Origin: Candidatus Omnitrophota bacterium
GTDB taxonomy: Bacteria; Omnitrophota; Gorgyraeia; Zapsychrales; JANLHA01
Direction of reading: 5' to 3'
NCBI GenBank assembly: GCA_029560465.1
Contig: JAKQKX010000016.1
Location: forward strand, 1,248-65,247
Length of the DNA: 64,000 bases
Under the pieces are notes generated by a model, which was given only the letters and a program-made list of their open reading frames with translations, did not search any database and was not told the origin of the DNA. Made by a program: the position numbers and the translations under genes. Shown piece after piece: positions 1 through 49,819 of this stretch; the stretch's first letter is position 1, and every line of letters starts with the position of its first letter.

Positions 1-253
1 TGAATATGTGCATGATCCGTTTAGACGACCCCTAGAATGGGGTGGATTCGTGGGGGCTAAAAACTTCCTTGGGATTTTTTTGTTTTTTCTGACAAAAAAC
101 TTAGTGCAGACATTGGACTTACCTTTCGATTCTTTTATCCAAATTATAAAAAAAGAAAGAATCAGATACTATAGGGGCAGATAAATATTTCCATTTTTTC
201 GTAATTTCATGATGATTTCTTCTGGCTTGCTTTTTTTCTGTTTTTAACCTGTT

Positions 254-275
254 TTTTGGTGCTTTATCACCAAAA
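254..275. promoter_or_regulatory. Perfect 8-bp inverted repeat TTTTGGTG-N6-CACCAAAA in the AT-rich region upstream of the giant gene
   Basis: Read directly: ttttggtg ctttat caccaaaa. It lies about 110 nt upstream of ATG 382 in a 380-nt AT-rich non-coding stretch. Candidate operator or hairpin. Confidence 0.3.
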
Positions 276-381
276 AGGGCTCAATTTTGGGGGCGGGTTA
301 CCATAGTGGTTTTTATGGCTTTTATATGTTATATTATTATAATAAATTTATATAAATTATATAAATAATTTCACTCCCAAA

Positions 382-3300
382 ATGAAAAGTAGCCCGCTTT
401 TTAAATTTTCCACCTGGACAGTTCTTTTTTCGTTTTTCTTTTCATTAATCGCCCCTCCGCGCAGTTCTGCGCAAGAATCATTTTCGCTTCCTGATCCCGG
501 AACGATGATCACCATTACCCCCGCTTTCGTACCCCCCATGTTAAAAGGAATGAAAGTGAATTTGGAAGATCCGTTTACCTTCGATTTCATTTTTGACAGC
601 GGGAATGCCAACCTGACCCCAGAAGAATTGAAAAGCGAGGCCAACAAATTAATTAAATATTTTTTGGCATCATTAACCATCCCCGAAGATGACCTGTGGG
701 TCAATTTATCGCCATATGAAAAAGATCGGGTCATTCCGAAAGAATTTGGCGTTACGGAGATGGGGCGAGATTTACTTGGACAGGATTATATTCTTAAACA
801 ATTGACCGCCTCATTGATTTATCCTGAGAAGGATTTAGGAAAAGAATTTTGGAATCGAGTTTTTTCAAAGGCCAGAGCGCTTTACGGCACAGAAGCCATC
901 CCGATTAATACCTTTAACAAAGTTTGGATCCTTCCAGATAAGGCCGTTGTTTATCAAAACCAAGACACAGTGTTTGTCCTGGAAAGCCATTTAAAGGTTA
1001 TGCTGGAAGGAGATTATCTTTCCCTTAAAGAAAATTTAAGCAATAAAAAATTGGGGATCGATAAATTAGACAAAGAGGCTATTCAGAAGCTGAATGATGT
1101 CTCCGCAGCCATTATTAAAGAGGTGGTTATTCCAGAAATTGAAAAAGAAGTTAATAGCGGGCAAAACTTCGCCAAATTGCGGCAGGTGTACCATTCTCTC
1201 ATTTTGGCGAAGTGGTATAAACAGAATCTCAAGGCCAGCATTTTGAATTGGAAATATTCCGATAAAAGAAAAGTGGTGGGGGTCGATGTCGAAGATAAAT
1301 CGATCAATGAAAAGATTTATGAGCAGTATTTGGAAGCCTTTAAGAAAGGCGTTTTTAATTATATTAAGGAGGATTACGACGTTGCCAAGCAGGAAGTTAT
1401 TCCCAGAAAATATTTTTCTGGCGGCATAGAACTTAAAGTCCCTCTTGAGGTGGAAACAGATCCGGCGATGCTGGCTAAAGCAACGTCGACTGGAAAATTA
1501 AACTGGATTAAAGGAATCTATCGTCAGCCCAGAGTTTCCGCCAGATTTGTCAACGAGTATATAAATCAAAAGTTTCGTGAAGGGGCCGTAAAGGAAGGGC
1601 AGCCGATAGACCTGCCTAACGGCAAACAGGCACAAGTCTATACCGTTAAGGGATTGTTAAAATCAACGGGGCAATTTGGGCACATTGGATTAGGAGCAAA
1701 AGAGAGAAAAGGAGCAGAGGTTGTTTATACGGATGGCGGATTACCGGTCATTTATCTGGACAGTGATTATGCTGAAAATTTAACAGTCAGGGATAACGAA
1801 AAATTCAAGGTTGAGAGGTGGGAAGAGCAAAAGATTGCTTTGGGCCGGGAAAGAGGTTTAAGCCGTCCACTGACCGCGCAAGAGATGCGGCAGTGGATCA
1901 AAAACAACACGACACAAGCCGCTGAATTGTTACAGGAATGGGATAGCCAGGCGCCTTCTTTAGTGCCGTTATTTGAAAAAGCGGAAGCAAAGGGGCTGTT
2001 GCCTTCTGATGAAGAAATTGCTGAGACGTACACGAGAGAAGAAGATTTTAGGGATTTAAATTTGGCGGCTGGCCGTTGGGGCATAAGAAGCGCTTCTTCT
2101 CGGGGGATCATGCCACAACACGCAGCGTATACGGTAGAAGCTGGCGAGAGTTACGATGACATAGTCATAAAAGAGCTTGCAAAACAGAGTGGCGTATCCG
2201 TCGATGATTTGGAGGCGAATTTCGAACGGACTGTTTCTATGCTTGAAGAGAGCCTGGGAAAGACCGGTTTTTCCCAACCAAATGCCGATGTGGTCGCTAA
2301 AAAAATACACGAGATATTCGATCGTCTGATCAAGGTTTATCAGACAAAAACGCAGGAAGCGCCGGGACGGTTACGAATTGTAGATGCGAATACTGTGAAT
2401 GCTTTTGTGATTCGCAAGCGCGCGGATGTGTATTTTTACAAGGGGCTATACGAAGCCCTGTACGATATCTCGACGCGGATGAATGTCCCTCTCACGGAAG
2501 ATATGATTGCTTTTATCATAGCGCATGAGCTTTCCCACGCTTTACAACATACATCCCGTCAAGGCCTCGATATCCGTGACCTTAACGAGAAGGCCTCTCC
2601 ATATCTGATTCAAATGATAAAAAATGGTGAGTACGACGCCGATATGAGAGCCCTTGAATTAATGGATAAAGCCGGATATTCAGTATTCGGCGCGGTTGAC
2701 GCGATGACATTTTTAGAATTCATCACGGGAACTAGCCAGGCCGAAAATGTGTTGAGTTCCCACCCGTATGTGAGCCTCAGAAAACACAGGTTATCACAAA
2801 TTATTTTTGATCAGAAAACGAACGTTTTTACTAATGTCAAGGCTTCAAGGGTTCCTATGGTTGGCAATGGTCGCATAAGGAGCCAGGACGTTGATTTTAG
2901 ACATTTAATGGATAAAAGCGAAGAAGAATTGTTGGCCATGGCGCAGAATGCAGAAAGCCTGGTGGCTTTGGATGAGTTAACGGGGATGCTGGTTCTTCGC
3001 AAGCGTATGAATGCGTTGAAAGGTTTAGTGAGAGAGGACCAATTAAAAGCAGCGTTCTTGCGCGATGTTTATGTTCAGGCTGTGCTGGCGGCAACGGGAA
3101 GAACCTCGCAAGGGATTGATTACTCTGACATGAAAGGTGCGGCGGCCATATATGATTTTGGAAAAGAAACAACAACGGAAAACGTCCTTGAAAGAAATGC
3201 GCCGGCATTTGAAGATAATCCAGATGATGTTATAAAAAAGATAAACGAGTCGCTCAAAGATGACGCATCAAGAGAGGGTGTTGCCGCCAAGAATGTGTTG

Positions 3301-6300
3301 GAAGGGTTGATTTCTTCTGGCAACCGGAGAGTTTATGGCCTTACACAGAATGACTTTGATGGATTTTTACTTCCTTTCGAGGATGTTAAGGATATTATTC
3401 CAATATTTACAAAGAGAAAAGGGGGGCTTAGAGGTGTTTTTGTAAGCAGACAAGAAGGCGCGAGTGTTGATCAAACGTTTTTTGAGGACGCAATGCGAGA
3501 CCCCCAAAGACTTATTTCTGCATTTTTCTACGCGAATTATCTTGGCCAGGAACCATCTGTTGAATTTGGTATCCCCACGACGGAAATGCGCGTAAAGTTA
3601 CAAAGAAGAAAGAATGAAGTGTATTTTGAAAATCCTGCTTATCGGGATACCGGGTCAGCGGAGAATAGAAGACATCTTCAAAATATTGTCCTTCTTCATT
3701 ACGCATTGGCAAAAACCCGTTCCAATATATTTGATAAGTATTTAGATGTTTCATTCCCGGGGATCAAGAGGCTTTTGCAAGTACCTGTACCCGATGTTCG
3801 CCAGCTTTTTGACAGGTATGAGACGTTATTTTCTAAGAAGTATCCTCAACCAATAGCAACTCAATTGGCCGGAAAAAGACTTTATGATTATTTTGGTGTG
3901 AAATTAGAAGGTGCCGGGGATGCCCCCACCGGATTCATTAATGAGGTTTCAAATTTTAAAACACAGGCCAAATCCGAATATGCGGAAGAAGAGGCAGGCT
4001 TTGCAGATTATATGAAGAACAAGGTTGGGGAGTTTGTAGATAGCCATCCTTTAATAATTTTTATGCGAACGGCCATACAACAGTATCGAGATCGGTTGTC
4101 GGTTCGGGATATAGAAAAGTTTGAAGAAACATTGGATCAATTGCGGACAAAAAGATTTGAAAAAAACTATAATTCACATTTGGACAGACAAAATATATCA
4201 AATATTTTAACTAAGCTCGCAGTGGTTTATTCACAAGAACCGCGAAGAGAAGCGCATGTTTCCGCTGTGTTTGCAAATGAGACTAGCTTGGAGTATTACC
4301 TCAAGGAAGAAGAAATTTTATCATTTAAGTCATTGCTGGAATTGCCGGATTGGGCCGTGTCTGACTATTTAAACAGAAAAAGCTATAGTGCCAATAAATT
4401 GATTGAGAATGCGCTGAAACAAGGCACGCCTCTAAGCGAAATATTTGCGTTTATGGGAACCCGCCTTGCGTATGCCGATAGACGAGAAGTTTTCGATAGC
4501 TTATTTTTGGGATGGTTCTCCGAGAATTCCAGGTACTTGTTCGATTTCTTTAAAACAAAGCTTAACAATAATTCACAGGAAATAATCGTGTGGTTCCTTG
4601 GGATGTTTTCCAAAAAGGACGCCCTTGAATTAATTGATAAGTTTTCCAGGGGGCTTTTGTACGAGAGAGCCAAAGACGCCCGCACCAATGTCGATGAAGC
4701 CGCGGAATTAAGAAACCTGGCCATTGCCTTGCTTGAATATATTTACAGGCAGACATCAAAGATATTTCACGCCGATGAAGAATCCGCAAAAGTTTATTTG
4801 GACTTAATAAATGAACGTATTGAAGAATCTGGGAAATCGGGAGATCAAAATTATGTGCGAGAGGTGGTTTACAATGCGCTTATGGTCCTGAGCGCTTCGG
4901 TTGCTCTTAAAATAGAATTCAGTCAACCGGAAGAACCTTCTGAGGATGGAACACCAGATTTTAAGTCTCAAAAGACAAGTCTTTTTCAACGGCAGGAATC
5001 TTTGGGGCGGTGGGAGACTGATTATAATTCACAATTTGCGCTCCATAATTTTGGCTGGAATGATAGAAAAGCAGCTTCTCAATCTGTTTTTGTGAGCCGT
5101 TTAACCGATTTATCAGTTGATCAGCTTAAGAAACTTTTAAAACAGAGATTGCGATACGTGGCGTCGCGAGCGGATGTTGAGTATAGAGGCGAAGTGTTTT
5201 CTTTGTCCAGTTTAAATGATTTTTTTGCAAATTTAATCACTTTAATAATATTAAAAAAAACACGTAACCCAGGATGGGAGAACACTAAGGAAAGCTTAAA
5301 CAGGCTCGATGATTTGATGGGCATCAAGGTTTCCTATTCCCAATATGATAAAAAGACATTTGCTATCCATGCGAAAATGAATTTGAAGATAGACCAGGAT
5401 GAAATCAACACAATATCTTACGACGCGATTAAAGAGAATTTTGTCGGGACTACGATCCCCTCTCCAGAACTTGATTATGTGTGGGGAGCTTATGTGGCGG
5501 CAAATGATCTCCATGGTAATTTTCCGGAAATCGTCCCCTTGCTTCAAAATCCCAACGCTGCAAACGAAAGCATTTACAATCCGATTGTTTTTCTCGAAAG
5601 ACACAAATATGGCAGGAGGGTCTCCTATCGACAAATAGTTCAAAAATTTTTTATGGATTCATCCGTTTACTCGAAACTTTTTAATGCCTATTTGAAAGTA
5701 CAGGGGAAAGGATATGTATACGGTAAATTCAGATCATTGGAAGAACGGCTGGCCTGGATAGCAAGAGTGCTGCCGAACAAGTCGATCATAAAAGACAGCA
5801 TTATTAACCTGTGGGAGACCGATATTTTCCCGGAGATAATCGCTGATTTGCCAGTTTTGGTAAAGTTGGCTCGACAGGCTTCCAGTGAGGGAGAAGGTTT
5901 ACTGCGGGATATGTGGGCGATCCTGGGGGAGATGGACGATGATGTGGGCCGATTAAAAAGGTTAAACGAGCAGATTGATTTATCACCAAAAAAAATACAT
6001 CAATTGTTGGATTTCTATGAAACCGTTATCCCTTTAGCGCTGTCACCCCAAAAAATAGCTCGATATGGAGCAACGGCATATATGCTGTGGCGGTTATTGC
6101 CAGAAAACGCCGGATTAGGCCTCTCGGAAAACCTTGAAGCCTTAACGAAATTTATGCCGGAGCCAGGAGTATTAAGAGACGAATTGTTAATGCGGATCGC
6201 AAACAAGTATGCAATGCGTTTGCAAGACGTGCCTCTTGTTTCTGAGAAATTGTATTCCAATAATTTGTTGTCACGAAGCAGGGACTTAAGAACAGAAGAC

Positions 6301-9237
6301 TTCGTTTCCGAGACCCTGTTACATCTGTTCGGTGGAGCAAAAACGGAAGACAGGAGAGATATTTTGTTGTGGGTCGTGGGCGCGCAGAGCAAGCCACTCT
6401 TCATAAGCGACATCGAGAATAAATATAATATTGATTTTACGACTTTGCCTAGCGACATAAAATTGCTTCCGGCAACAATGCGAGAAAAATTTATTGAAGG
6501 GTTCATGCTTGGTGATAATGGAGTCCTGGATCCTCAAAATGATAACGATAGACTCGTTATGTCCGACTTCTTGGAGCGCCTGTTTTTATACCTGTTCCCC
6601 GAGGGAACCAAGGGCATAGGCAACGAGGAGAGGCTGCTTATATCCAAAGTTTTTCTTATTGTTATGAAATCTTTCCCTCCATATCGAAGAGTACAGGTTA
6701 TAAAGGCCTTGGCGGCCCTACGCGTAAAGGCTGATTTTGAAAAAACAAGCACGGGGGAACGGCTGGCCGTCCTTCTGGGAGTGTTAGGGCCCGTTGGGAT
6801 AAAGGTTGCACAGTATTTATCTGAGAACGAAACGCTGGTTTCAGATGAGAAAATGCGCTCGAGCTTAGGCGCACTACGACACAAAGCCCCGGAGATTACA
6901 AAGATTTCAGCGTTTTCCGTGTTGGAGAAGGAAGTCCCCTTGAGTGAAGTATTGGTGCGAGAAATGGGCGAGCCCGTTGGCGTCGCCTCAATCAAACAGG
7001 TTAATCGCGGGGGATGGCTGGATATCGAGACATTAGCTGAATTGGTGATTCGTAAAGCTCGAGGGGCGGATATGAATGAAGTCAGAGAAAAAATGCGCGC
7101 TTATCAGGCTAAGGAAATTCCATTTTCTGAAGCGGTCGCGTTTGTGGTCGAAAAAGCTCAGCAATATAAAATAAATTTGGAGGAGGCCACGGCCTCGGTT
7201 GTTTTTAAAATTCGACGCCCTAATATGGAAACGACCCTCGGCACAGATTTTGCGGCCCTTGATGATGTGGCTCGGGAATTGCAAGGCACGGCTCATAAAG
7301 GCGAAGCCATTAATATCAGCGATTTGGTTCAAACCGTTAAAGAATGGGTGATCCTCGAGATGCTTTTTAGTAATGAGGCAAAGTTTGCCAAGATGCTTAT
7401 GGACCTGGATTATACGTGGTCTGAAAATTTTCAACAGCAGGCAGGGGTAACAATCGTTCATCCCAAAATATTGTATGTGACGGATTCGCTCATTGTTGAG
7501 GAAGAAATTCAAGGAGCCCCCGTATTAAGTCTTGCGCCGAAGCAACAGCCAATAACGATGGAAGACGTAATGGGCGCGGGATATTCCCGTTCCGAGGCTG
7601 AGCGGGTTTTTGTCGCATTGTCCTCAGTTGACCCTCGGCAAGCGCACCTCACGTTAAGTCTTAAGAAAGCCGGATTCCCAGAGGAAGAATTAAGCAACCT
7701 GACTAAAAGAATGCTTGCTTATGACTACGGGAAACTACGCGAGTTATTACGTCAAATGTTGTTGCACCAAATATTTGTTGATGGTGTTTTTCACGCCGAC
7801 CTTCATCAGGGAAACATCCTCATCACGCCTGATGGCAGGCTTGTGATGATAGATTGCGGCAATGTCGGCAGATTAAACAGGGCTCAAATTGAAGGAGCAA
7901 AAATTTTATTAAAAGGATTGTCGCTCAGAGAAAAAGATCTCATAAAACAAGGAGTCGATGAGATTTTCTTAAATGCCACGTATGAAGACGGAGTTCAGCC
8001 GAAAACTCCCAACATAACGTTAGCCGATATACAGGAAATATTGGGTAAAGGATATGACCTGAAAATGACAATGAACTTGATTAGCGTGAGAGCCGTTCAG
8101 GGAGCAAAGAATACCCCCGGCGGGAAGGATTTCTCGACGTTTTTAAAAGCCTTCACCCAAGCCATGTATCTATTTCCCACAGATCTAATAAACGGTATGG
8201 CGACACTACAGGCAATCGCTCAATATATTTCGATGAGCGAGGAGGATGCGATACGTGCGGCTCAAGAGCAAGCAAAGTATTTTGTCGTGCAGGAGGTAGA
8301 CACGGCTGAGGGAGAAGCCGAAGCTCAAGGAGATATATTACAGATAGCGGAAAGGATTTTTTATAAAAAAACAGAGCGGTCTTTCTTACGTTCGGTATGG
8401 CGACCCATGGTTTTTCGTATGCTGGCAGCTCCTATAAAAAGAGCGACCGCCAAAGCCCCGTCTATAGGAAGCAATGTGATGTCACTTGTTAGGGTGCAGG
8501 GCCGGCAAATTATAGAAGAAAATATTAATGAATTTTTAAAAAGACAGAATTCCGAAATTGGGGATGTAGTGAAGGACATGATATCCGTTCCATTTGCAGA
8601 GAAGTTTGTGACCTCTTATGTGGAGCGTGGCATGAAAGAAAGTCGAGGAGGAAAATTCTTAGCCCCCATCGCGATGCCTTTGTTGAAAGGCGTACTATTC
8701 TTAGTCCGGCCGTTGACGAGGATATATGTTGAGGCTGCCAAAGAATGGGTTGATACCACGGGGAAACAGTATATCGCAAGCATTGCCCCGCACATGACGA
8801 TAAGAGAAGGGATTGATCTTTTATCACAGGTGTTTGTGGACGATTTTTCGAGTATAAAAAAGAAATTTGATGAAGGACGAACCAATGGTGAATCCGTCCC
8901 CCTGGCCACGGAGCCGTTATCAGATATCCGAGTTAGGGAGGACATGCACGGAGGTTCTCAATTAGGCAATGAGAAAACTCTGTTTGCAACCGAAACAAGT
9001 TCTTCGGTTCAACAAAATCCAGGCGGTATTGATTTTAATCTCGATTTGTTGGAGCTTGAAATTCATGGGCAGGAGAGTGATTTTAATTTGCCCAATGTTA
9101 ATCAGAATTTCGACCACATTCAAATAGATGACGGTCTTTTGCCGGTGATTATTAATATAACCCCGATCACGACAACGCTCCCTATCATTTTAGGCACGGC
9201 TGAGAGCGAAAAACAGCAATTGACCAGTGTTCAATAA
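382..9237 (+). CDS. Very large (2951 aa) secreted/surface multidomain protein with an internal M48-type zinc metallopeptidase module and an ABC1/UbiB-type atypical kinase module
   Basis: Uninterrupted 8.8-kb ORF. N-terminal hydrophobic signal-like segment (WTVLFSFFFSLIAPPRSSA|QE). HEXXH (IIAHELSHALQH, nt ~2521-2550) is followed ~35 aa later by EYDADMRALEL (EXXAD), the hallmark pair of M48/HtpX-type peptidases. Further on, LGPVGIKVAQYLS (nt ~6781) ... VVFKIRRP ... FHADLHQGNILITPDGRLVMIDCGNVGRL (nt ~7795) matches ABC1/UbiB kinase motifs (LGPTFIKLGQ / FHADPHPGN...DFG). The N-terminal ~320 aa and C-terminal ~60 aa are shared with the 766-aa protein at 44123-46306. Confidence 0.85.
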   Translation: MKSSPLFKFSTWTVLFSFFFSLIAPPRSSAQESFSLPDPGTMITITPAFVPPMLKGMKVNLEDPFTFDFIFDSGNANLTPEELKSEANKLIKYFLASLTIPEDDLWVNLSPYEKDRVIPKEFGVTEMGRDLLGQDYILKQLTASLIYPEKDLGKEFWNRVFSKARALYGTEAIPINTFNKVWILPDKAVVYQNQDTVFVLESHLKVMLEGDYLSLKENLSNKKLGIDKLDKEAIQKLNDVSAAIIKEVVIPEIEKEVNSGQNFAKLRQVYHSLILAKWYKQNLKASILNWKYSDKRKVVGVDVEDKSINEKIYEQYLEAFKKGVFNYIKEDYDVAKQEVIPRKYFSGGIELKVPLEVETDPAMLAKATSTGKLNWIKGIYRQPRVSARFVNEYINQKFREGAVKEGQPIDLPNGKQAQVYTVKGLLKSTGQFGHIGLGAKERKGAEVVYTDGGLPVIYLDSDYAENLTVRDNEKFKVERWEEQKIALGRERGLSRPLTAQEMRQWIKNNTTQAAELLQEWDSQAPSLVPLFEKAEAKGLLPSDEEIAETYTREEDFRDLNLAAGRWGIRSASSRGIMPQHAAYTVEAGESYDDIVIKELAKQSGVSVDDLEANFERTVSMLEESLGKTGFSQPNADVVAKKIHEIFDRLIKVYQTKTQEAPGRLRIVDANTVNAFVIRKRADVYFYKGLYEALYDISTRMNVPLTEDMIAFIIAHELSHALQHTSRQGLDIRDLNEKASPYLIQMIKNGEYDADMRALELMDKAGYSVFGAVDAMTFLEFITGTSQAENVLSSHPYVSLRKHRLSQIIFDQKTNVFTNVKASRVPMVGNGRIRSQDVDFRHLMDKSEEELLAMAQNAESLVALDELTGMLVLRKRMNALKGLVREDQLKAAFLRDVYVQAVLAATGRTSQGIDYSDMKGAAAIYDFGKETTTENVLERNAPAFEDNPDDVIKKINESLKDDASREGVAAKNVLEGLISSGNRRVYGLTQNDFDGFLLPFEDVKDIIPIFTKRKGGLRGVFVSRQEGASVDQTFFEDAMRDPQRLISAFFYANYLGQEPSVEFGIPTTEMRVKLQRRKNEVYFENPAYRDTGSAENRRHLQNIVLLHYALAKTRSNIFDKYLDVSFPGIKRLLQVPVPDVRQLFDRYETLFSKKYPQPIATQLAGKRLYDYFGVKLEGAGDAPTGFINEVSNFKTQAKSEYAEEEAGFADYMKNKVGEFVDSHPLIIFMRTAIQQYRDRLSVRDIEKFEETLDQLRTKRFEKNYNSHLDRQNISNILTKLAVVYSQEPRREAHVSAVFANETSLEYYLKEEEILSFKSLLELPDWAVSDYLNRKSYSANKLIENALKQGTPLSEIFAFMGTRLAYADRREVFDSLFLGWFSENSRYLFDFFKTKLNNNSQEIIVWFLGMFSKKDALELIDKFSRGLLYERAKDARTNVDEAAELRNLAIALLEYIYRQTSKIFHADEESAKVYLDLINERIEESGKSGDQNYVREVVYNALMVLSASVALKIEFSQPEEPSEDGTPDFKSQKTSLFQRQESLGRWETDYNSQFALHNFGWNDRKAASQSVFVSRLTDLSVDQLKKLLKQRLRYVASRADVEYRGEVFSLSSLNDFFANLITLIILKKTRNPGWENTKESLNRLDDLMGIKVSYSQYDKKTFAIHAKMNLKIDQDEINTISYDAIKENFVGTTIPSPELDYVWGAYVAANDLHGNFPEIVPLLQNPNAANESIYNPIVFLERHKYGRRVSYRQIVQKFFMDSSVYSKLFNAYLKVQGKGYVYGKFRSLEERLAWIARVLPNKSIIKDSIINLWETDIFPEIIADLPVLVKLARQASSEGEGLLRDMWAILGEMDDDVGRLKRLNEQIDLSPKKIHQLLDFYETVIPLALSPQKIARYGATAYMLWRLLPENAGLGLSENLEALTKFMPEPGVLRDELLMRIANKYAMRLQDVPLVSEKLYSNNLLSRSRDLRTEDFVSETLLHLFGGAKTEDRRDILLWVVGAQSKPLFISDIENKYNIDFTTLPSDIKLLPATMREKFIEGFMLGDNGVLDPQNDNDRLVMSDFLERLFLYLFPEGTKGIGNEERLLISKVFLIVMKSFPPYRRVQVIKALAALRVKADFEKTSTGERLAVLLGVLGPVGIKVAQYLSENETLVSDEKMRSSLGALRHKAPEITKISAFSVLEKEVPLSEVLVREMGEPVGVASIKQVNRGGWLDIETLAELVIRKARGADMNEVREKMRAYQAKEIPFSEAVAFVVEKAQQYKINLEEATASVVFKIRRPNMETTLGTDFAALDDVARELQGTAHKGEAINISDLVQTVKEWVILEMLFSNEAKFAKMLMDLDYTWSENFQQQAGVTIVHPKILYVTDSLIVEEEIQGAPVLSLAPKQQPITMEDVMGAGYSRSEAERVFVALSSVDPRQAHLTLSLKKAGFPEEELSNLTKRMLAYDYGKLRELLRQMLLHQIFVDGVFHADLHQGNILITPDGRLVMIDCGNVGRLNRAQIEGAKILLKGLSLREKDLIKQGVDEIFLNATYEDGVQPKTPNITLADIQEILGKGYDLKMTMNLISVRAVQGAKNTPGGKDFSTFLKAFTQAMYLFPTDLINGMATLQAIAQYISMSEEDAIRAAQEQAKYFVVQEVDTAEGEAEAQGDILQIAERIFYKKTERSFLRSVWRPMVFRMLAAPIKRATAKAPSIGSNVMSLVRVQGRQIIEENINEFLKRQNSEIGDVVKDMISVPFAEKFVTSYVERGMKESRGGKFLAPIAMPLLKGVLFLVRPLTRIYVEAAKEWVDTTGKQYIASIAPHMTIREGIDLLSQVFVDDFSSIKKKFDEGRTNGESVPLATEPLSDIRVREDMHGGSQLGNEKTLFATETSSSVQQNPGGIDFNLDLLELEIHGQESDFNLPNVNQNFDHIQIDDGLLPVIINITPITTTLPIILGTAESEKQQLTSVQ

Positions 9238-9583
9238 ATTCCTTCAGCTCTTCTGTTATTATTAATCAGTCAAGAATCATGAGTTTCTTAAATGCTAACC
9301 CCTTAGGAATACGGACGCAGGAGATGAATTTTATGAGGGTTTATAAACGGAAAAAATGATATTTGGAGAATAAAGCACCGTCCTCATCAGTCCAGCAGGG
9401 CTTTTTTGAGATATTGAAATGCACCCCCCGCTCCCGCTGGAAAGGAGGAGCTTGTCCTTGTTCCTCGCATGTTTTTTGGGGTGCCCAGGTTGCCCCCGGG
9501 GTCACTTAACCGCCGGGATCTTTTGAAATGCTTGGGAGATATAAATTTTTTATTAACTTCGGGAACAGCAGAGGCTCACAACC

Positions 9584-40916: not shown

Positions 40917-40948
40917 GGCGTCTCCTTTGCTTCAGCGGTGCCGCGTCG

Positions 40949-42436: not shown

Positions 42437-42475
42437 AGTTCGTGTTCTCCTGCGCGGTCCGGCCGCGGGCGTCTT

Positions 42476-43663
42476 TTACAGAACTCCGACGATAATAACG
42501 TTGCCGTTCTGGACGAGCCAGGGGTCGGTTGATGGATCTTGGCTGAAACGGAAAAACTGATTGAGGCAGAACGTGCCAATCATGGGAACTCCGTCGCCAA
42601 AGATGTTCTTGATCGTGCTTATCTCTTCCGCGGCGCCCCGGCCCATCAGTTTACAGCGGGTGATTGACTCGAAGATCAGGACAAAGCTGGGCTTTTTCAA
42701 GGTGAGCTGCGCGCGGACATCCTTGGCCGCCTCTGCCGCCGCTTCTAAGTGCGAAGCCTGGTTCCCGATCATGATGTTCACCTCTGCGCCTTTGGGAACT
42801 TTATCTTGACAGATTAAGGCCCCTCCGTCAAGAACGCCCAGAACATTTCTTAGGATATATTGCTGGCTTCCCGGCAGCCGCACGCCTAAAGGGTAACGGA
42901 AACTCAACGGGCTGGAAGGTCCTTTTTTCAGGGTTTCCGCTTCCGTGCCAAAATACTGTTCGTAGAGGGCGCTGGCTTTGCGCCCGTTGATGGACAGGAT
43001 GAGGGGGCCGTCAACCTTATCCACGGTGCGGGGTTTCCCTATCGGCTTGAATCCGTGCTGGATGGAAATCCCGACCTGCATGCGTCCCCCCAGGACAAGA
43101 GACGTCGCTCCTTCCGACATGGCGGTGTCTTTGTAGTATTGAAACGTTTGTTGAAAGCGGAAGTCATCGCTGCTGCCGATCATAATCATGGGGAGATTAT
43201 ACATGAGTTCCTGTTTGATTCCGTCTATCAGGTCAGACAGCCCGTCCAGCAGGCCGTCGGCGATACAAAAAAAAAGCTGGCGCTGTTTTTGCCCGAACTC
43301 GGAAAGGGTGGACTTTACGAGTTCCCGCCCGGCTTCGGTTTTATCCTTGAGTTTCAGGTAGGGCACGCAGCCGGATTCAAAACGGATCTGGTCTGAAATT
43401 ATGGCCATCACGGCCACGCCCCGGTTGGCCACCTGGCTGGGCAGAATAATGGATGGCGTTGACGCGCCGATGATCCGCGTGCGGTTCATGATGTCGTAAA
43501 TGACAGGGATCACCTCGGCCGGGGCGTAATGGATGGTGCTGAACACAATCGCCAGGTCGACCCGGGTTGACTGTAAATATTTTTTAGCCTGTTCCGCCGC
43601 TTCTTGGGCGGCCAGACGGGTGTTGTAATTTTGGCTAAAGCCGATTCCCACGCGGGTGGCCAC
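42476..43663 (-). CDS. FIST-domain sensor protein (FIST_N + FIST_C)
   Basis: 395 aa. The N-terminus MATRVGIGFSQNYNTRLAAQEAAEQAKKYLQ...DLAIVFSTIHY is typical of FIST proteins. First gene of the minus-strand FIST-HK-RR operon. Confidence 0.6.
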   Translation of the reverse strand: MATRVGIGFSQNYNTRLAAQEAAEQAKKYLQSTRVDLAIVFSTIHYAPAEVIPVIYDIMNRTRIIGASTPSIILPSQVANRGVAVMAIISDQIRFESGCVPYLKLKDKTEAGRELVKSTLSEFGQKQRQLFFCIADGLLDGLSDLIDGIKQELMYNLPMIMIGSSDDFRFQQTFQYYKDTAMSEGATSLVLGGRMQVGISIQHGFKPIGKPRTVDKVDGPLILSINGRKASALYEQYFGTEAETLKKGPSSPLSFRYPLGVRLPGSQQYILRNVLGVLDGGALICQDKVPKGAEVNIMIGNQASHLEAAAEAAKDVRAQLTLKKPSFVLIFESITRCKLMGRGAAEEISTIKNIFGDGVPMIGTFCLNQFFRFSQDPSTDPWLVQNGNVIIVGVL

Positions 43664-43845: not shown

Positions 43846-43919
43846 GGCCCCATCGTCTAGCCTGGTTAGGACGAATGGTTCTCAGCCATTAAACACCGGT
43901 TCAAATCCGGTTGGGGCTA
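43846..43919 (+). tRNA. tRNA-Glu (anticodon CUC), 74 nt, no encoded CCA
   Basis: GGCCCCA acceptor paired with TGGGGCT. D-arm TCGTCTAGCCTGGTTAGGAC, typical of tRNA-Glu. Anticodon stem AATGG/CCATT with loop TTCTCAG. T-arm ACCGG-TTCAAAT-CCGGT. Discriminator A. Confidence 0.8.
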
Positions 43920-43926
43920 TATGTAA

Positions 43927-43960
43927 CCCCCTGCGATTTAATAATTGCAGGGGGTTTTTG
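43927..43960 (+). terminator. Rho-independent terminator of tRNA-Glu
   Basis: ccccctgc-gatttaataatt-gcaggggg followed by ttttt. Confidence 0.75.
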
Positions 43961-44122
43961 TTTGGGGTAGAATGGGAATGATTTTATAGAAGAGCAGTTT
44001 TTTTCTTGGGAAGTTTTGCCATTTTTCTATTTTTAAGTGGCACAATTTCTGGGGTGCAGGTCAGGCGGGTCAATTTGCAAAAACTTAAAGGGGTCGGGAG
44101 ATCCAATAAAAGGGATTTAAAA

Positions 44123-46306
44123 ATGCGAAAATCAATTCCAAAATATCTGTATCGTCTTATCGTAACTGTAGTTGTGGGAATCTTTTTTGCCACTCAAGTC
44201 TCAACTTCAGCGGGTTATGCCCAGATTCCCTCACCCTCAAATTCCAAAGCTTTGCAAAACCTGCCGCCCGCAGGTTCGCAAGTGGGTTTAAGCCAGAAGT
44301 TTTTCCCGGCCAACTTGCGTGGCCTCAAGACTTATCCTGGAAATCCGCTGCAGTTTGATTTTGTTATTGATACCGGTGATGACAACCTCTCCGGCCCGGT
44401 TTTTGAGGAGGAAGCGAAGAAATTGATTAAGTATTTTCTCGCCGTTTTAACTGTTCCCGAAGACGAATTGTGGGTGAACCTTTCGCCGTATGAAAAAGAC
44501 CGCATTATCCCGGAAGGCCTGAGCGTAACGGAACTCGGAGTGGATATGCTAGCCCAAGACTATCTTTTAAAACAGTTCACAGCTTCGTTGACCTATCCGG
44601 AAGAAAAATTGGGCGCGGAATTTTGGCAGAGAATATACGCGAAGGCCAAGGAAGAGTACGGTACGGATAACATCCCGCTCAATACGTTCAACAAGGTTTG
44701 GATCGTGCCGGACAAGGCAGGGGTTTATGAATACAAAGACAGTGTTTTTGTCATCGAACGGCATTTTAAAGTCATGCTGGAGAATGATTACCTGGCGCTG
44801 AAGGAGAATCTGGGGAGGAAAGACGCGGGGGCCGATGAGCAATCAAAAATAGTAGCAAATCAGGTGAATAATATGTCGGGAAAGATTGTCAAAGAGATTA
44901 TTCTGCCGGCGATCGAACAGGAAGTCAATGAGGGCAAGAATTTCGCGCAGTTGCGGCAGATTTATAACGCAATGATTTTAGCGACCTGGTACAAGAAAAG
45001 GTTAAATGCGGGTTTCCTGGGGCAGGTGTATGTGAATAAGAATAAGATCAAAGGCGTTGATACGGATGACCATGCCGCCAAAGAGAAGCTTTACGCGCAG
45101 TACCTGGAGGCGTTTAAAAAAGGCGTTTACAATTATATTAAGGAAGACCATGACGCGGCCAGCCAAAAAGCCATTCCGCGAAAATATTTTTCCGGCGGGC
45201 TAGGTGCTGGAGTGGTGACAACAGAGAAGCTGCGGATTCTCCGCGGCGACCCGGCTCGTTTACCCAAATCGGTATCATCCGCCGTGATGCTGCCGGAATC
45301 AAAGCAGGGGAAGGACCACAAGGTGACGATTCAGTTAATAGAAAGCGCGACAAACGGAAGGCAGGGGTCTCCGGTGTCGTTACCATCACTACAGCTAGCC
45401 GGCACAGTGGACAGAAAAGGGATTTTTTCTCCGGAAGAGGCGGCTCGGGCCGGCTTTCTTCCCGAGGATGATTATAGTGCCCTGGTCAGTTCCCCTATAT
45501 TCGTCTCCGGTGGAAAGTTTGTCAAAAGCGCACTGATCCTTTGCACAGGACTTGTTACCGCGTACTATTCTTATTTAAATGAAATTGAGATAGTCCAGCG
45601 TATAGCGGGAATTTTACTCGCCGGGGGCGGTCTTTTGGGGGTTCTGAGCGCCATTAAGGACAACGTCTCGATATGGACAAGCCAGTTTTCTTATGAAAGA
45701 GGAATACGGGAAGAATATAGGCAGTTAGTTCATTACAATCTGGATGTCGTTCAGAAATTGCGGGACCGTCTTCCAGTAACGAGGATGGCGACCCTGGAGC
45801 AGGATTTGGCATTGTTGAGAGATGCGATCGCATTTAGAAATCAGGGATATGATTTCGCAGTGCTTATCCAGCCGGGGGAGTGGGCAGCAGTTGAGCGATC
45901 AGAGACACGGTGGGAAGACGATCCTGATACTTATAGTTTGGAAGGCGGGCAGCCACAAAAGTTGGTGACGCACACATGGACAGAAGAGGCCTGGGTTGAG
46001 GAAAGGATTATAATCGTTCAAGGAGAACGTCTTTTTGACAGGAGTTCTTCTCCGATTCAGGAGGATGGCCGTTTAACGCAAGCCAATGACAAGAATGTTG
46101 GAGGTATTAATCTTGATGCTGAATTATTGAATTTGCAAATCAAACGCGACGGAGCTGGCGTGCCCTTGCCTTTACCGCAGCAACCGATCCAGAATATGAA
46201 AATAGACGGTTTCCTGCCGTTGATTATCAATATTGAACCGGTTAGTATTCCGCAACTGTTGGGAATTTTGTCGGATAGGAAGAAAAAGGAAGACGTCTTT
46301 TATTAA
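44123..46306 (+). CDS. Secreted/membrane protein paralogous to the N- and C-terminal modules of the giant protein (382-9237) but lacking its enzymatic core
   Basis: Signal peptide MRKSIPKYLYRLIVTVVVGIFFATQVSTSAGYA. Residues ~90-400 align with giant-protein residues ~75-385 (LIKYFLAVLTVPEDELWVNLSPYEKDRIIPE... vs LIKYFLASLTIPEDDLWVNLSPYEKDRVIPK...; NTFNKVWIVPDKAGVY vs NTFNKVWILPDKAVVY). The C-terminal ~55 aa (…DGFLPLIINIEPVSIPQLLGIL) aligns with the giant C-terminus (…DGLLPVIINITPITTTLPIILG). The central region has two hydrophobic helices. Confidence 0.8.
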   Translation: MRKSIPKYLYRLIVTVVVGIFFATQVSTSAGYAQIPSPSNSKALQNLPPAGSQVGLSQKFFPANLRGLKTYPGNPLQFDFVIDTGDDNLSGPVFEEEAKKLIKYFLAVLTVPEDELWVNLSPYEKDRIIPEGLSVTELGVDMLAQDYLLKQFTASLTYPEEKLGAEFWQRIYAKAKEEYGTDNIPLNTFNKVWIVPDKAGVYEYKDSVFVIERHFKVMLENDYLALKENLGRKDAGADEQSKIVANQVNNMSGKIVKEIILPAIEQEVNEGKNFAQLRQIYNAMILATWYKKRLNAGFLGQVYVNKNKIKGVDTDDHAAKEKLYAQYLEAFKKGVYNYIKEDHDAASQKAIPRKYFSGGLGAGVVTTEKLRILRGDPARLPKSVSSAVMLPESKQGKDHKVTIQLIESATNGRQGSPVSLPSLQLAGTVDRKGIFSPEEAARAGFLPEDDYSALVSSPIFVSGGKFVKSALILCTGLVTAYYSYLNEIEIVQRIAGILLAGGGLLGVLSAIKDNVSIWTSQFSYERGIREEYRQLVHYNLDVVQKLRDRLPVTRMATLEQDLALLRDAIAFRNQGYDFAVLIQPGEWAAVERSETRWEDDPDTYSLEGGQPQKLVTHTWTEEAWVEERIIIVQGERLFDRSSSPIQEDGRLTQANDKNVGGINLDAELLNLQIKRDGAGVPLPLPQQPIQNMKIDGFLPLIINIEPVSIPQLLGILSDRKKKEDVFY

Positions 46307-46480
46307 TTTTACCGGAAGCATGATTCAGGATGAATCTGGAAATGTTATCCGCGCAATTTTTATAGACTGTTCGGCGCGCTGATGCAGATATCCGGAGGAG
46401 TTCCAGGGACACAATACTTAATTGAGGAGAAAACTGTAGGTGCCAGGCTCCCAATTGGGATGTCGACAAAGGAGGCCGGC

Positions 46481-47044
46481 ATGAAAAATAAAAACCAAAG
46501 AAATGCTTTGTCGTGCACGCAGGGATTTTTAATCGGATTAATTGCTTTCAGTAATTTTATCCATCAAGAAAAATCCGCCTTTGCCATGGCGATGTGCCCC
46601 TATATAGACATTGAGGCCACCGTTGTTTCTTTGTCATTGGAAAGCCCCGAGGGCTATTATGAGGACGGGAAACTGATCCGGGCTCCGCTTGATTCTGCCG
46701 TTGTGAGAATAGATAAAGTTTATGAAAGAGGCGGAGACGGGCTATTTGACTGGGCTTCTCTCGGGATTGAAGAAGGGAAGGACGTGGAGCTTGAATTTAA
46801 ATATTCAGTAAGGCCCGCTAAAATTGTGACCGTTGTTGGGCGAACGATACACTCCGGCCGAGTTGTTTCTCATGTTGGTGCCCCTGCTGAAAACACGTTT
46901 GAAGACGGTTATTTTGTTTTTAGAGAAGACGGGAGCGCGGAAGCCGAAACAATATTGCCGGGCTTGCAGGCCGGGTCCCGTTTCCGGACGAAATTATGGA
47001 AGACTTTCGAGGTTAAAGTAGGTCAGTATGAGGTGGTGCATTAG
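46481..47044 (+). CDS. Hypothetical secreted protein
   Basis: AGGAGG RBS, then ATG. Signal peptide MKNKNQRNALSCTQGFLIGLIAFSNFIHQEKSAFA. No recognisable motif. Confidence 0.55.
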   Translation: MKNKNQRNALSCTQGFLIGLIAFSNFIHQEKSAFAMAMCPYIDIEATVVSLSLESPEGYYEDGKLIRAPLDSAVVRIDKVYERGGDGLFDWASLGIEEGKDVELEFKYSVRPAKIVTVVGRTIHSGRVVSHVGAPAENTFEDGYFVFREDGSAEAETILPGLQAGSRFRTKLWKTFEVKVGQYEVVH

Positions 47045-47119
47045 TTATCCGGACAACGATCCTTTTGTATTCTACCCTTAGCCGCGGAAATAGATCTCCA
47101 AGACGGAAGACAAAGAAAT

Positions 47120-49819
47120 ATGAGCATGGCGTTGATAAAACATTGCGCTAAAATAAAGTCCGCTGAATCAAGCGCGGCGAAGGCCGGCAGAAACATGGGG
47201 CACGCGATGAATTCGCAGGAAGCCATGCGTAAGGATTATGTGAAGAGTTTGTGGTGCATTATTTTATTGTTTTTTATCATAGGGATTCCCGGACAGGGCT
47301 TGTCTTATTCTAAAGACGAGTCTGTTGTGGCAGCCGTCACGGCGCTGCGCGAGATCACGTCTGTTGACCAGTTGCTTGAGTATTTGGATGATCAAGAATG
47401 GTTTAATCGCTTCGCTGCGATTCAGGTTTTGGGAGAAAGAAAGGATGGCCGCGCGGTTGAGCCTTTACTGGCAATGCTTAAACATGAAAATGACCCTGCC
47501 TTTCGTAAGGAAATCCTTAGCGCTCTTACGGGAATTGGGGGACGGGGGGTGGTTGAGCCTTTACTGACCGTGCTTAAAGACGAACAGGACTCTTCGACCC
47601 GTAAGGACATTTTTGTCGCGCTTGCTGAAATGAATGATCCGCGGGCTATCACCGCTTTCGTAGATGAGCTGGAAAAGGATACGTTTCAATTTTATGATGA
47701 TCCGGAGATATATTTGGTCAGGCTTGTGAACGGGGCGCAGGATTCGGCGATGGTGTTGCCGGCGCTTCATGCCCGTGATGTTGCTGTGCGGCAAGCTGCG
47801 GCCGCGGCCTTGGACAAACTCGGATGGAGGCCCTCGAACAAAGAGCAAGAGGTTTTATATTCCGCGGCGAAGCGGGAATGGGAAAAATGTGTTCTGCTCG
47901 GTAGCTTTTCCGTTGACGTTTTGGCGGAATTGCTGAATGACGCGTATTGGTCGGAGCATGCTTCCGAGATCGGGTTGGCTCTCGGGAGGATAAACGATAC
48001 CAGGGCCTTTGCGGTGTTGGAAAGGGCTTTGCAGTCAGATATGTGGTATCTTCGTGAAACAACAGCCGAAGTTCTGGGGGATCTCGGGGACCCTCGCGGC
48101 GTTGAGCCTTTGATCCGCGCCGTTTCTGATCATGATGAGAGAGTGAGCAGCAAGGCGGTCGAGGCCTTGGGAAAGATGAAAGCTTCGCAGGCACAGCCCG
48201 CCCTGGTCGCTGCGTTGATGCATGAGGACAGCCGCGTCCGAAAAGCCGCGGCTGCGGCTCTGGAGGCGATGGCCTGGAACCCTTCTACCCCGCAGGAGAA
48301 AGCGGCTTATTACACCGTGAAGCAGGACACGGAGGCGTGTGTGGCGCTCGGGCAGGCTGCTGTCGCGCCTCTGCTGGTTTCCGCTTCGGATTCTTTTGAT
48401 TTTGAGGGGCGTGATTTTGCGGTTGCCGCGTTAGCGGAAATCGGACCTCCTGCTGTTGAGCCGCTGCTTGCTGAGTTTGCCTCGCGTGCGGAATTTTCCT
48501 CCGCAGCAGGTAACACCGGGGCCGACGAGGCCAGGTTTTATGAATTTCAGCAGGCGAATATCCGCAGGCGCCAAGCCATTGTCAGGGCGTTGGGGGAGAT
48601 CAAGGACCTGCGGGCAATAGAGCCCCTGATCAGGTCATTGGCGGACGCAGAGATCAGGAACACGGTTATTGAAGCCTTGGGGAAGGTGGGGTCTTCGGAC
48701 GCGAATACGATGCTTATTGGTTTGCTTAAGGATGATGAGCCGCAGATACGGAAAGTGACGGCTGACGCTTTGGGCCAGATCGGGTGGATGCCGGCAACGG
48801 AGGCCGAAAAAGTCGCTTATTATATTGCGGGTCAGGATTGGGAGGCCTGTGAAAAACTGGGGCCGGCGGCTGTCGAACCGTTGATCGCCCTTGTGTTGGC
48901 CGGGCAGGAAGTCAATTTTGATGCCGATCCGGTTGTCAGCGTGCTGGGCAGGATCAAAGACCCTCGGGCGATCAGGCCCCTGGTATGGGCGTTAAGCCTG
49001 TATCATTTTTTCAGCGATTACGGGGTGCGTGATGAGAATAAACTCATAGAAGCGATTGCCGGTTTCGGCCCGGCGGCCGTAGGGCCTTTGATGGAAGCCA
49101 TGGATAAACGTCCGGTCATTTTAAGCGTTAGTGACCTGCCCGTGGATAGCAGGGAACGCGTTATGGATATTTTACTGAAAAACAATTGGGCGGTACGACT
49201 GAGATTATGGCAGTTTTTGCTGACCGTTGATCCTGCAAGCGTCGAGGACCGGATGGCTGAGGCGTTGGGCGAGGATTTTGAGAGATTGAAAAAATTTTTT
49301 ATCCCGTCAGACGCAGAACCGAACCGCCAACTGATCGCCCGGGCCATCGCCGTGATCGGCGATGCGCGCGCTATCCCTGTTCTGGCCGCGCATCTGCAGG
49401 ACTGGGAAGCCCGTTATGAGATCGCAGGTGCTTTGCGGCAGTTGCAGTGGCAGCCGACGACCGAAAAAGAAAGAATTTATTTTCTGCTCAGCGGAGGAAG
49501 CGATGACGGCATTAACGCGCAATGGGGCGCCGTGGAAAAAGTATTGATGGATGACCTTGATAATGGAGACGAGCGCGCGGTCCGTTTTGCCTTGTACACA
49601 TTCATTTATCTGGGCCGGGAGGAGTACGTCCCGAAACTTATCGAGGTCCTATGGGAACGAGATTCCAGCAAGCTGGCCGAGGCCTATTTGAATTGCGGGC
49701 ATGATAAATTGGCAGAGGCCGCCAGTAAGTGGGCATTGGCCAACGGGTATATGGTGACTTCCCATAACGCCACGCCCAACGATGGTTCCTACCATCCCGT
49801 CAGTTGGGATTCTAAATGA
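47120..49819 (+). CDS. HEAT-repeat (PBS-lyase type) protein, ~899 aa, N-terminal membrane/signal anchor
   Basis: At least 12 repeats of the pattern RA(V/I)EPL(I/L)..L.D.....R..A..ALG.IGD.RA (e.g. DGRAVEPLLAMLKHENDPAFRKEILSALTGIGGRGVVEPLLTVLKDEQDSSTRKDIFVALAEMNDPRAI). Hydrophobic segment LWCIILLFFIIGIPG near the N-terminus. The true start may be at an internal Met. Confidence 0.75.
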   Translation: MSMALIKHCAKIKSAESSAAKAGRNMGHAMNSQEAMRKDYVKSLWCIILLFFIIGIPGQGLSYSKDESVVAAVTALREITSVDQLLEYLDDQEWFNRFAAIQVLGERKDGRAVEPLLAMLKHENDPAFRKEILSALTGIGGRGVVEPLLTVLKDEQDSSTRKDIFVALAEMNDPRAITAFVDELEKDTFQFYDDPEIYLVRLVNGAQDSAMVLPALHARDVAVRQAAAAALDKLGWRPSNKEQEVLYSAAKREWEKCVLLGSFSVDVLAELLNDAYWSEHASEIGLALGRINDTRAFAVLERALQSDMWYLRETTAEVLGDLGDPRGVEPLIRAVSDHDERVSSKAVEALGKMKASQAQPALVAALMHEDSRVRKAAAAALEAMAWNPSTPQEKAAYYTVKQDTEACVALGQAAVAPLLVSASDSFDFEGRDFAVAALAEIGPPAVEPLLAEFASRAEFSSAAGNTGADEARFYEFQQANIRRRQAIVRALGEIKDLRAIEPLIRSLADAEIRNTVIEALGKVGSSDANTMLIGLLKDDEPQIRKVTADALGQIGWMPATEAEKVAYYIAGQDWEACEKLGPAAVEPLIALVLAGQEVNFDADPVVSVLGRIKDPRAIRPLVWALSLYHFFSDYGVRDENKLIEAIAGFGPAAVGPLMEAMDKRPVILSVSDLPVDSRERVMDILLKNNWAVRLRLWQFLLTVDPASVEDRMAEALGEDFERLKKFFIPSDAEPNRQLIARAIAVIGDARAIPVLAAHLQDWEARYEIAGALRQLQWQPTTEKERIYFLLSGGSDDGINAQWGAVEKVLMDDLDNGDERAVRFALYTFIYLGREEYVPKLIEVLWERDSSKLAEAYLNCGHDKLAEAASKWALANGYMVTSHNATPNDGSYHPVSWDSK

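Follow-up and report, generated by a model that had tools for sequence, protein, structure and literature searches.

A family of Omnitrophota proteins in which a conserved N-module and a conserved C-terminal motif frame unrelated centres

Why would two proteins encoded a few tens of kilobases apart share their two ends and nothing in between? This question is raised by a 64,000-nucleotide stretch of a Candidatus Omnitrophota genome (assembly GCA_029560465.1, contig JAKQKX010000016.1, positions 1,248 to 65,247 of the forward strand; hereafter the window), which encodes a 727-amino-acid (aa) protein at positions 44123-46306 of the window and a 2951-aa protein at positions 382-9237, named here p727 and the giant, respectively. 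Omnitrophota are widespread, uncultured nanobacteria thought to be predators or episymbionts. Their giant multi-enzyme proteins with signal peptides are an open puzzle, as enzymes of cytoplasmic type are predicted to lie outside the cell. We found that both proteins are paralogs within a family confined to this phylum, in which a two-ended frame encloses an exchangeable centre.

A sequence-only reading of the window had described p727 as a 766-aa paralog of the giant, sharing with it the first ~320 residues at 55-60% identity and the last ~55 residues, with a short middle containing two hydrophobic helices. The paralogy was borne out by our analysis, while the length was not: 766 aa is the maximal open reading frame (ORF), beginning at a TTG at position 44006, and we prefer the ATG start, from which 727 aa are counted, because it fits the N-terminal signal peptide of the family and the ortholog P0002. 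The orthologs of p727 are P0001 (97%) and P0002 (86%, from an NCBI Omnitrophota metagenome-assembled genome, MAG). BLASTP aligned p727 and the giant with an E-value of 7e-126 (47% identity, 440 columns). The N-terminal core of this alignment, aa 46-360 of p727 against aa 35-349 of the giant, lies just past the signal peptides and is 57.1% identical over 315 ungapped residues (66.5% at the DNA level). The C-terminal ends are identical at 25 of 66 positions (37.9%), a score reached in none of 2000 shuffles, and both match the hidden Markov model (HMM) of the family C-terminal motif, at aa 658-723 of p727 (E 1.5e-29) and at aa 2879-2946 of the giant (E 1.7e-19). No similarity was found between the two proteins outside these regions, hereafter the N-module and the C-motif, and a tblastn search of the window did not reveal a third copy of either.

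Database searches showed that these two proteins belong to a very large family, which has no name and is restricted to the phylum Omnitrophota. Of the 8,000 candidates scored in a word-indexed search with p727, more than 3,100 were matches, and their named sources were Omnitrophota or Omnitrophica with one exception, probably mis-binned. One family member (P0075), encoded on a 2.1-kb contig, carries the deposited name 'Candidatus Heimdallarchaeota archaeon', probably through mis-binning or mislabelling of Omnitrophota DNA. When the N-module was compared exhaustively by phmmer with 1.84 billion representatives, counted as clusters at the 50% identity level, 7,912 clusters matched at E<=1e-3, with 6,243 of them at E<=1e-30. 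In all of the best 150 hits, the match was a single stretch starting near residue 40, in proteins of 520 to 4,969 aa.

A scan of genomes, one per species, identified at least 584 stretches encoding family members; the loci counts given here and below rest on 80 of them (L001-L080). All 80 came from Omnitrophota MAGs or from MAGs that are probably mislabelled. Some had been deposited as 'uncultured Planctomycetales' (L004, L006, L008 and others), as 'bacterium', or as Ca. Aceula or Ca. Elulimicrobium. According to its taxonomy Ca. Aceula is an Omnitrophota genus, and the many MAGs under the name 'uncultured Planctomycetales bacterium' are probably Omnitrophota that were wrongly binned or labelled. 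Overall, the members range from ~520 to more than 4,900 aa, and since at least 10 of the 107 family ORFs in these loci were still open at about 3,690 aa or more, where the fetched DNA ended, many of them must be large.

The similarity between the members cannot be put down to low complexity or to signal peptides. Among 77 of them the N-module, whose start is marked by LNLPxPG, has at least 40 invariant positions, including WVNLSP, QDYxLKQ, NKVW, E.E.N.G..F..LRQ, W.K and the terminal ...Y.SGG. The invariant polar residues are N119, S121, D146, K150, Q151, K191, E265, E267, N269, R278 and K291, and no Cys or His is conserved in the module. The C-motif spans ~55-60 aa with the consensus GGIDLNP..LDLQIKRDG.GVPLP...QPI..M.I.GF.PVIINI.PV.NLP.LLG, in which only G, G, G, P, I and P are invariant. 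It occurs as a subtype A (LDLQIKRDGxGVPLP), found in p727 and most members, and as a subtype B (L.L...G....F.(F/L)P), found in the giant and a minority, which explains the modest C-terminal identity of our pair. A Gly-Gly is invariant at both module boundaries, that is, at the end of the N-module (...YFSGG) and at the start of the C-motif (GGIDLN). We considered a SpyTag-like isopeptide lock through the Asn of PVIINV and rejected it, since this position can also be Q, H, R, D or S and the invariants of the motif are G, P and I only. The tails that follow the C-motif are variable in length, mostly acidic or polar, and often end in an acidic run followed by ...LSxL(N/R/Q).

The two modules occur together, one of each per protein. 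In the best 120 hits, an N-terminal hydrophobic segment always directly precedes the N-module, and 111 of them carry the C-motif, with a median of 16 residues from the end of the motif to the C-terminus. In a sample of 236 proteins, the C-motif HMM found exactly one copy, always terminal, in 198, the remainder being mostly short metagenomic fragments. Likewise, 72 of 80 complete family ORFs in the genome loci have the motif, and in five of the eight that lack it, a masked run or a frameshift has broken the gene and the motif lies in the next ORF. The reverse case, a C-motif with no N-module, was observed almost exclusively in ORFs cut by the edge of a locus, by masked runs or by frameshifts (one exception, L024_104_1723). 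Based on this one-to-one co-occurrence, we conclude that the two modules are obligately coupled. Both p727 and the giant show the complete set of family features: an N-module ~35-50 residues from the start, a single C-terminal motif (GGI[DN]..-..G..P.I....P...LLG) no more than a few tens of residues from the end, a Sec-type signal peptide and an Omnitrophota genome as source.

Signals for Sec export and signal peptidase I are defined by the -3/-1 rule and the positive-inside rule. We read the N-terminus of the family as a cleaved Sec signal peptide because it combines a K/R-rich start (a median of three K/R in the first 20 residues), a hydrophobic core and an AxA-like site. This site, identified by its pattern, lies at most 22 residues before LNLPxPG in 183 of the 184 members with a full N-terminus; its commonest forms are AxA/Q, SxA/Q, VxA/Q and GxA/Q, where the slash marks the putative cleavage point. 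It reads ...SAGYA/Q in p727 and ...RSSA/Q in the giant.

What lies between the modules is diverse and mostly made of cytoplasm-type enzymes. The centres measure 118 to 2,529 aa in the best 120 hits and exceed 3,700 residues elsewhere in the family. Pfam domains detected in them include Radical_SAM, DUF218, Hexokinase_1, Hexokinase_2, PFK, DRAT, Macro, RelA_SpoT, Response_reg and class-I fructose-bisphosphate aldolase. In 30 further members we found HEAT, UDPGP, HATPase_c, GGDEF, PGM/PMM I-IV, Response_reg, Radical_SAM together with B12-binding, HAD, GT2, several methyltransferases, PP2C and GNAT, HEAT repeats being the commonest cargo of the family. Catalytic motifs were intact where we checked them (CxxxCxxC in P0003; HExxH and HxDxHxGN in the giant). 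A precomputed Pfam domain was available for only about 30% of the first 120 hits, so that most cargo is unannotated. Moreover, 78% of the centres have no hydrophobic segment, which indicates soluble cargo, and 46 of 236 members have a single one.

The p727 centre belongs to the minority with hydrophobic segments. Of the two stretches predicted by the sequence-only reading, the first covers aa ~459-485 (Kyte-Doolittle 19-residue mean 1.44) and the second aa 490-512 (1.86), and AlphaFold2 (AF2) places helices at residues 466-482 and 489-499. From their sequence they are a possible membrane hairpin. Since hydrophobic segments are rare in the centres, this hairpin belongs to the cargo of p727 rather than to the frame. 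Among the retrieved proteins, local BLAST matched the whole p727 centre only to P0001 (99%) and P0002 (87%), and its first ~50-85 residues also weakly to P0003-P0005 and P0077. No Pfam or NCBIfam match was found anywhere in p727.

Neither module has a recognizable relative in the resources that we searched. Scans of p727 and of both ends of the giant against Pfam, NCBIfam, PHROGs and PADLOC gave no model for either one. Profiles of the N-module, the family and the C-motif returned low-complexity noise or nothing from PDB sequences, and a Foldseek search with the p727 model returned nothing significant. AF2 predicts a mixed alpha/beta fold for the N-module. In the full-length model, the p727 centre has a predicted local distance difference test (pLDDT) score mostly below 50, and the C-motif forms strands at residues 661-663, 670-675 and 697-706, with pLDDT values of 60-83. 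Literature searches on the motifs, Omnitrophota, cargo, N-terminal, sorting and effector found no description of the family, including in the Omnitrophota papers searched. Therefore, the N-module appears to have no known fold, and the family appears to be undescribed and unmodelled; the sequence-only reading likewise knew of no description of the family.

Tandem family genes on the same strand, with two to three copies within ~20 kb, were found in 24 of the 80 loci. Pairs from the same genome were about as similar as pairs from different genomes, both in the N-module (57 vs 54% identity) and in the C-motif (38 vs 35%). We thus rejected the idea of genome-specific C-terminal tails or of concerted evolution. 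The absence of a closer relationship between same-genome paralogs argues against recent gene conversion, and an N-module identity of ~55% both within and across genomes points to an old expansion under strong constraint.

Considering all the above results, we favour a model in which the family is a Sec-exported frame, with the N-module and the C-motif acting as a joint handle that targets, anchors or assembles exchangeable cargo at the cell envelope or at the zone of contact with a partner cell. We give this model a probability of roughly 55%. The sequence-only reading had likewise proposed a shared export or anchoring scaffold with varied cargo: the scaffold and its cargo are supported by thousands of proteins with the same ends and many unrelated domains between them, while the support for export or anchoring is indirect and comes from the AxA-like site. 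Each protein consists, in order, of a predicted Sec signal peptide, the ~320-aa N-module, the exchangeable centre, the ~60-aa beta-rich C-motif and a short variable tail. According to the model, it would cross the inner membrane via Sec and be cut by signal peptidase I at the AxA/Q site, after which the N-module and the C-motif would serve jointly as a common handle at the envelope or at the zone of contact with host or prey. The individual activity would come from the centre. That of p727, small and with a two-helix hairpin, may be membrane-embedded or membrane-active, and that of the giant may act through the M48 metalloprotease and the ABC1 kinase carried within its ~2,500 residues.

Two further considerations are consistent with this model. 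The uniform ~55% conservation of the N-module, which is above that of usual secretion signals, would fit a module constrained by a partner common to all members, which may be the C-motif, either its own or that of another subunit. Furthermore, most centres need ATP, S-adenosylmethionine (SAM) or NAD, so that an action on or in the cytoplasm of a partner cell would make sense. Such an action is conceivable given that electron micrographs of V. archaeovorus were reported to show open cytoplasmic contact to its prey (PMC13153191).

Several observations weigh against the export model. Radical SAM enzymes, glycolytic kinases and receivers are hard to reconcile with unfolded export through Sec into a compartment free of ATP. 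The conservation of the N-module among paralogs, being higher than that typical of secretion signals, could instead reflect an enzymatic or a structural role. If the single hydrophobic segments found in 46 of 236 centres are true transmembrane (TM) helices, they would place the N-module and the C-motif of these proteins on opposite sides of the membrane. Including the C-motif, as in the full-length AF2 prediction, brought no gain in confidence for the N-module. Clustering of 812 ORFs from the 80 loci did not reveal any conserved neighbour gene, such as a transporter or a sorting enzyme, the most widespread cluster being present in 14 loci, which indicates that the frame has no dedicated neighbouring partner. 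Finally, export, cleavage, contact between the two modules and localisation are deduced from sequence rather than from experiment or structure.

The frame may also be a unit that assembles by itself on the principle of flagellin or of donor-strand pilins, with the C-motif strands of one subunit docking on its own N-module or on that of the following subunit, and the paralogs co-assembling into a coat or filament that displays the centres. This would be a more specific form of the export model and does not contradict it. It would account for the strict coupling of one N-module and one C-motif at the extreme ends, for an N-module conservation that is high and uniform regardless of the genome, as if any C-motif had to fit any N-module, and for C-motif invariants (Gly, Pro and Ile only) that are typical of compact beta elements and not of active sites. 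The strands of the C-motif, predicted with relatively good pLDDT inside an otherwise poorly predicted C-terminal half, point in the same direction. Even so, we regard this specific form as unlikely. The main rival of the export model holds that the N-terminus is an uncleaved anchor, or that there is no export at all, and that the frame serves within the producing cell to tether or cluster enzymes, as a metabolic scaffold or compartment bound to the membrane. The overwhelmingly cytoplasmic type of the cargo and its dependence on cofactors would be readily explained, and West-Roberts et al. (10.1101/2023.11.21.568195) themselves wrote of some predicted extracellular localisations of giant-protein domains that they 'seem highly unlikely'. 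However, a K/R-rich N-terminus ahead of a hydrophobic core predicts an N-in/C-out orientation, the signal peptide of p727 together with its even number of helices puts both modules outside, and the canonical AxA/Q site is conserved in nearly all members. Mostly for this last reason the intracellular scaffold is disfavoured, and we consider it quite improbable.

Alternatively, the N-module might itself be an enzyme, for instance an autoprocessing protease or transferase, with ...YFSGG and GGIDLN as processing sites that free the cargo. Its many invariant polar residues and the invariant Gly-Gly at both module boundaries would agree with this, as would the C39 (double-glycine) peptidase domains reported in giant Omnitrophota proteins (West-Roberts et al., 10.1101/2023.11.21.568195). 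The lack of any conserved Cys or His and of a match to a peptidase family or fold, together with surroundings of the GG that differ from double-glycine leaders, makes this very unlikely. As for the shared ends being handles for recombination (cassette shuffling or antigenic variation) or an artefact of composition, the tandem copies and the GC content of the family genes, lower than that of their neighbours, could be taken in favour of such a view. It is largely refuted because the N-modules of p727 and the giant share only 66.5% identity as DNA and because same-genome paralogs are no closer than cross-genome pairs. Moreover, the centres are unrelated domains and not variants of one antigen, and the similarity between p727 and the giant is far beyond chance. 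We give this explanation hardly any credence.

A broader version of the export model would see in the frame a new phylum-wide targeting or assembly system, serving as the chassis of mid-size and giant Omnitrophota proteins and bringing exported enzymes of cytoplasmic type to the surface of the cell or to the junction of predator and prey, so that they act in the cytoplasm of the partner, for example by head-to-tail docking of N-modules and C-motifs or by a new outer-membrane route. We put this forward tentatively, and in its full extent we are inclined to doubt it. Judging from the 2951-aa member, the frame may be the common chassis of the published giant proteins; the members described here reach more than 4,900 aa.

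The coordinates of the two family genes and of their parts are collected in Table 1.

Table 1. Parts of the two family genes and the elements upstream of p727 (window coordinates; slash, predicted cleavage point)
Feature	Position	Strand	Evidence
p727 gene, 727 aa + stop, member of the N/C-frame family	44123..46306	+	ORF list, translation, orthologs
p727, predicted Sec signal peptide, aa 1-33 (MRKSIPKYLYR + hydrophobic core + GYA/Q)	44123..44221	+	Kyte-Doolittle peak at aa 5-30; family AxA-like pattern (cleavage predicted)
p727, N-module, aa 46-360, ending in invariant ...PRKYFSGG	44258..45202	+	
p727, variable centre (cargo), aa 361-657, unique to its orthologs	45203..46093	+	Local BLAST, Pfam, AF2
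p727, two hydrophobic helices in the centre, aa ~459-485 and 490-512	45497..45658	+	Kyte-Doolittle; AF2
p727, C-motif, aa 658-716, subtype A: GGINLDAELLNLQIKRDGAGVPLPLPQQPIQNMKIDGFLPLIINIEPVSIPQLLG	46094..46270	+	C-motif HMM, E 1.5e-29; alignment; AF2 strands
Giant gene, 2951 aa + stop, same family as p727	382..9237	+	
Giant, predicted signal peptide, aa 1-30 (...PPRSSA/QE)	382..471	+	Sequence; family-wide AxA-like pattern
Giant, N-module, aa 35-349	484..1428	+	BLASTP, tblastn, ungapped alignment with p727
Giant, Peptidase_M48 in the cargo, HELSH at aa 715	2299..2598	+	Pfam, E 2.4e-11; HExxH motif present
Giant, ABC1/UbiB-type atypical kinase domain in the cargo, HADLHQGN at aa 2471	7156..7935	+	Pfam, E 5.1e-22; partial match to TIGR01982; motif present
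Giant, C-motif, aa 2879-2946, subtype B: GGIDFNLDLLELEIHGQESDFNLP...DGLLPVIINITPI...ILG	9016..9219	+	C-motif HMM, E 1.7e-19; alignment
tRNA-Glu (43846-43919), then terminator with a 14-bp stem (43925-43956)	43846..43956	+	ARAGORN; terminator scan

Both family genes lie among ordinary chromosomal genes (Amt, GS-III, NadE, Lnt, CarA/CarB, PyrG, Rpe and a FIST/kinase/GGDEF operon). The tRNA-Glu gene and the terminator located upstream of p727 indicate that this gene begins its own transcription unit. Upstream, on the minus strand, a signalling operon (39966-43663) encodes a FIST/FIST_C sensor, a HisKA/HATPase_c kinase with a trace of GAF, and a receiver-GGDEF diguanylate cyclase. Downstream, on the plus strand, a 220-aa ORF (46382-47044) with no Pfam, PHROGs or PADLOC match separates p727 from the gene of an 899-aa stand-alone HEAT-repeat protein (47120-49819), which has an N-terminal hydrophobic segment and neither module of the frame. 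The contig of the ortholog (L081) keeps only the upstream FIST gene of the p727 neighbours, and the 220-aa ORF is not conserved beside the ortholog.

Directly downstream of the giant gene, a 529-aa TPR-repeat protein is encoded on the plus strand (9584-11173). A run of nitrogen and nucleotide metabolism genes follows on the same strand (13212-38676), comprising a GAF-GAF-ANTAR regulator, an ammonium transporter, a type III glutamine synthetase, NAD synthase, Lnt, CarA/CarB, a PurF-like amidotransferase and CTP synthase. The GC content is 0.40-0.455 in the giant gene and 0.478 in p727, against 0.50-0.57 in the housekeeping genes between them (positions 1-10000 and 44000-48000 vs 12000-44000). 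This lower GC content could be due to amino-acid composition or to a different history.

The frame provides a family-level marker with which the repertoire of these proteins can be catalogued genome by genome, where present annotation relies on the cargo or reads 'hypothetical'. Its two small conserved modules indicate where to look for a mechanism of export, anchoring or assembly, and localisation can be tested with simple constructs, in which the N-module and the C-motif enclose a reporter, and in metaproteomes already available. If the family is indeed a delivery system, it would represent a new chassis bearing a very large natural library of effector domains.

Several known systems resemble this frame in part. 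Classical autotransporters (type Va) end in a C-terminal beta-barrel of 250-300 aa, whereas the conserved C-terminal part is here ~60 aa and has no Pfam match. The tripartite sorting signals (LPXTG, PEP-CTERM, GlyGly-CTERM) consist of a motif, a TM helix and a basic cluster, while the C-motif has a proline-rich PVIINV.P...LLG followed by variable, mostly acidic or polar tails, and no NCBIfam sorting signal was matched. Closer in layout are the TpsA/CdiA exoproteins, which likewise have a Sec signal peptide, then a conserved N-terminal domain of ~250-300 aa and very different downstream parts. However, their two-partner secretion (TPS)/haemagglutination domain is a beta-helix, and our N-module has no TPS match in Pfam and a predicted mixed alpha/beta fold. 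Their genes lie next to that of TpsB (POTRA and beta-barrel), whereas the neighbours in the window are the FIST/kinase/GGDEF operon, the 220-aa ORF and the HEAT protein. Unlike the frame family, TpsA proteins also have no obligatory conserved C-terminal motif.

The cargo proteins of type IX secretion combine a Sec signal peptide, diverse domains and a conserved C-terminal module within one phylum, as do the proteins described here. Their C-terminal domain (CTD) is Ig-like and measures 80-100 aa, against ~55-60 aa of the C-motif; we found no match to the Pfam and NCBIfam CTD models (Por secretion tail), and type IX cargo shares no N-terminal domain. In flagellins, including those with enzyme inserts, conserved N- and C-terminal ends likewise flank a hypervariable centre, and these ends meet as the core of the assembly. 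However, flagellins have no Sec signal peptide and their ends are helical, whereas the two ends of the frame are a 320-aa globular domain and a short motif with predicted beta strands, and we did not observe any similarity in sequence, fold or Pfam matches. MARTX and polymorphic toxins also carry interchangeable effector domains between conserved ends, many of which act only in the cytoplasm of the target. MARTX toxins are secreted by a type I secretion system (T1SS) through an uncleaved C-terminal signal, have no Sec signal and contain glycine-rich repeats. In contrast, the frame family has a Sec-type signal and no RTX repeat or homology match, and each of its very many paralogs per genome bears its own frame.

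The closest biological relatives of the frame family are the published giant proteins of Omnitrophota ('Archaeovorins'). Two preprints (10.1101/2023.11.21.568195; 10.64898/2026.06.07.730766) treated proteins of >10,000-30,000 aa, sorted by Pfam content and TM topology, with a cargo repertoire of HEAT, HATPase_c, radical SAM, GGDEF, PGM, receiver, hexokinase, HAD and NUDIX domains. For most of the giant proteins, a signal peptide and/or TM helices were predicted (Nielsen & Lui, 2026, 10.64898/2026.06.07.730766), and their N-terminal regions were described as having no identifiable domains (West-Roberts et al., 2023, 10.1101/2023.11.21.568195). They thus agree with the frame family in phylum, in predicted signal peptides and in cargo, including PGM/PMM and methyltransferases. 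The Archaeovorin type itself (>30,000 aa, SecA-like DEAD domains, many TM helices) differs from p727 (727 aa) and the giant (2951 aa), in which Pfam detects no SecA, and we found no description of a conserved N-module or C-motif in either preprint. Altogether, signal-peptide-bearing multi-enzyme giant proteins were already known in Omnitrophota, and what appears to be new is the common N- and C-terminal frame.

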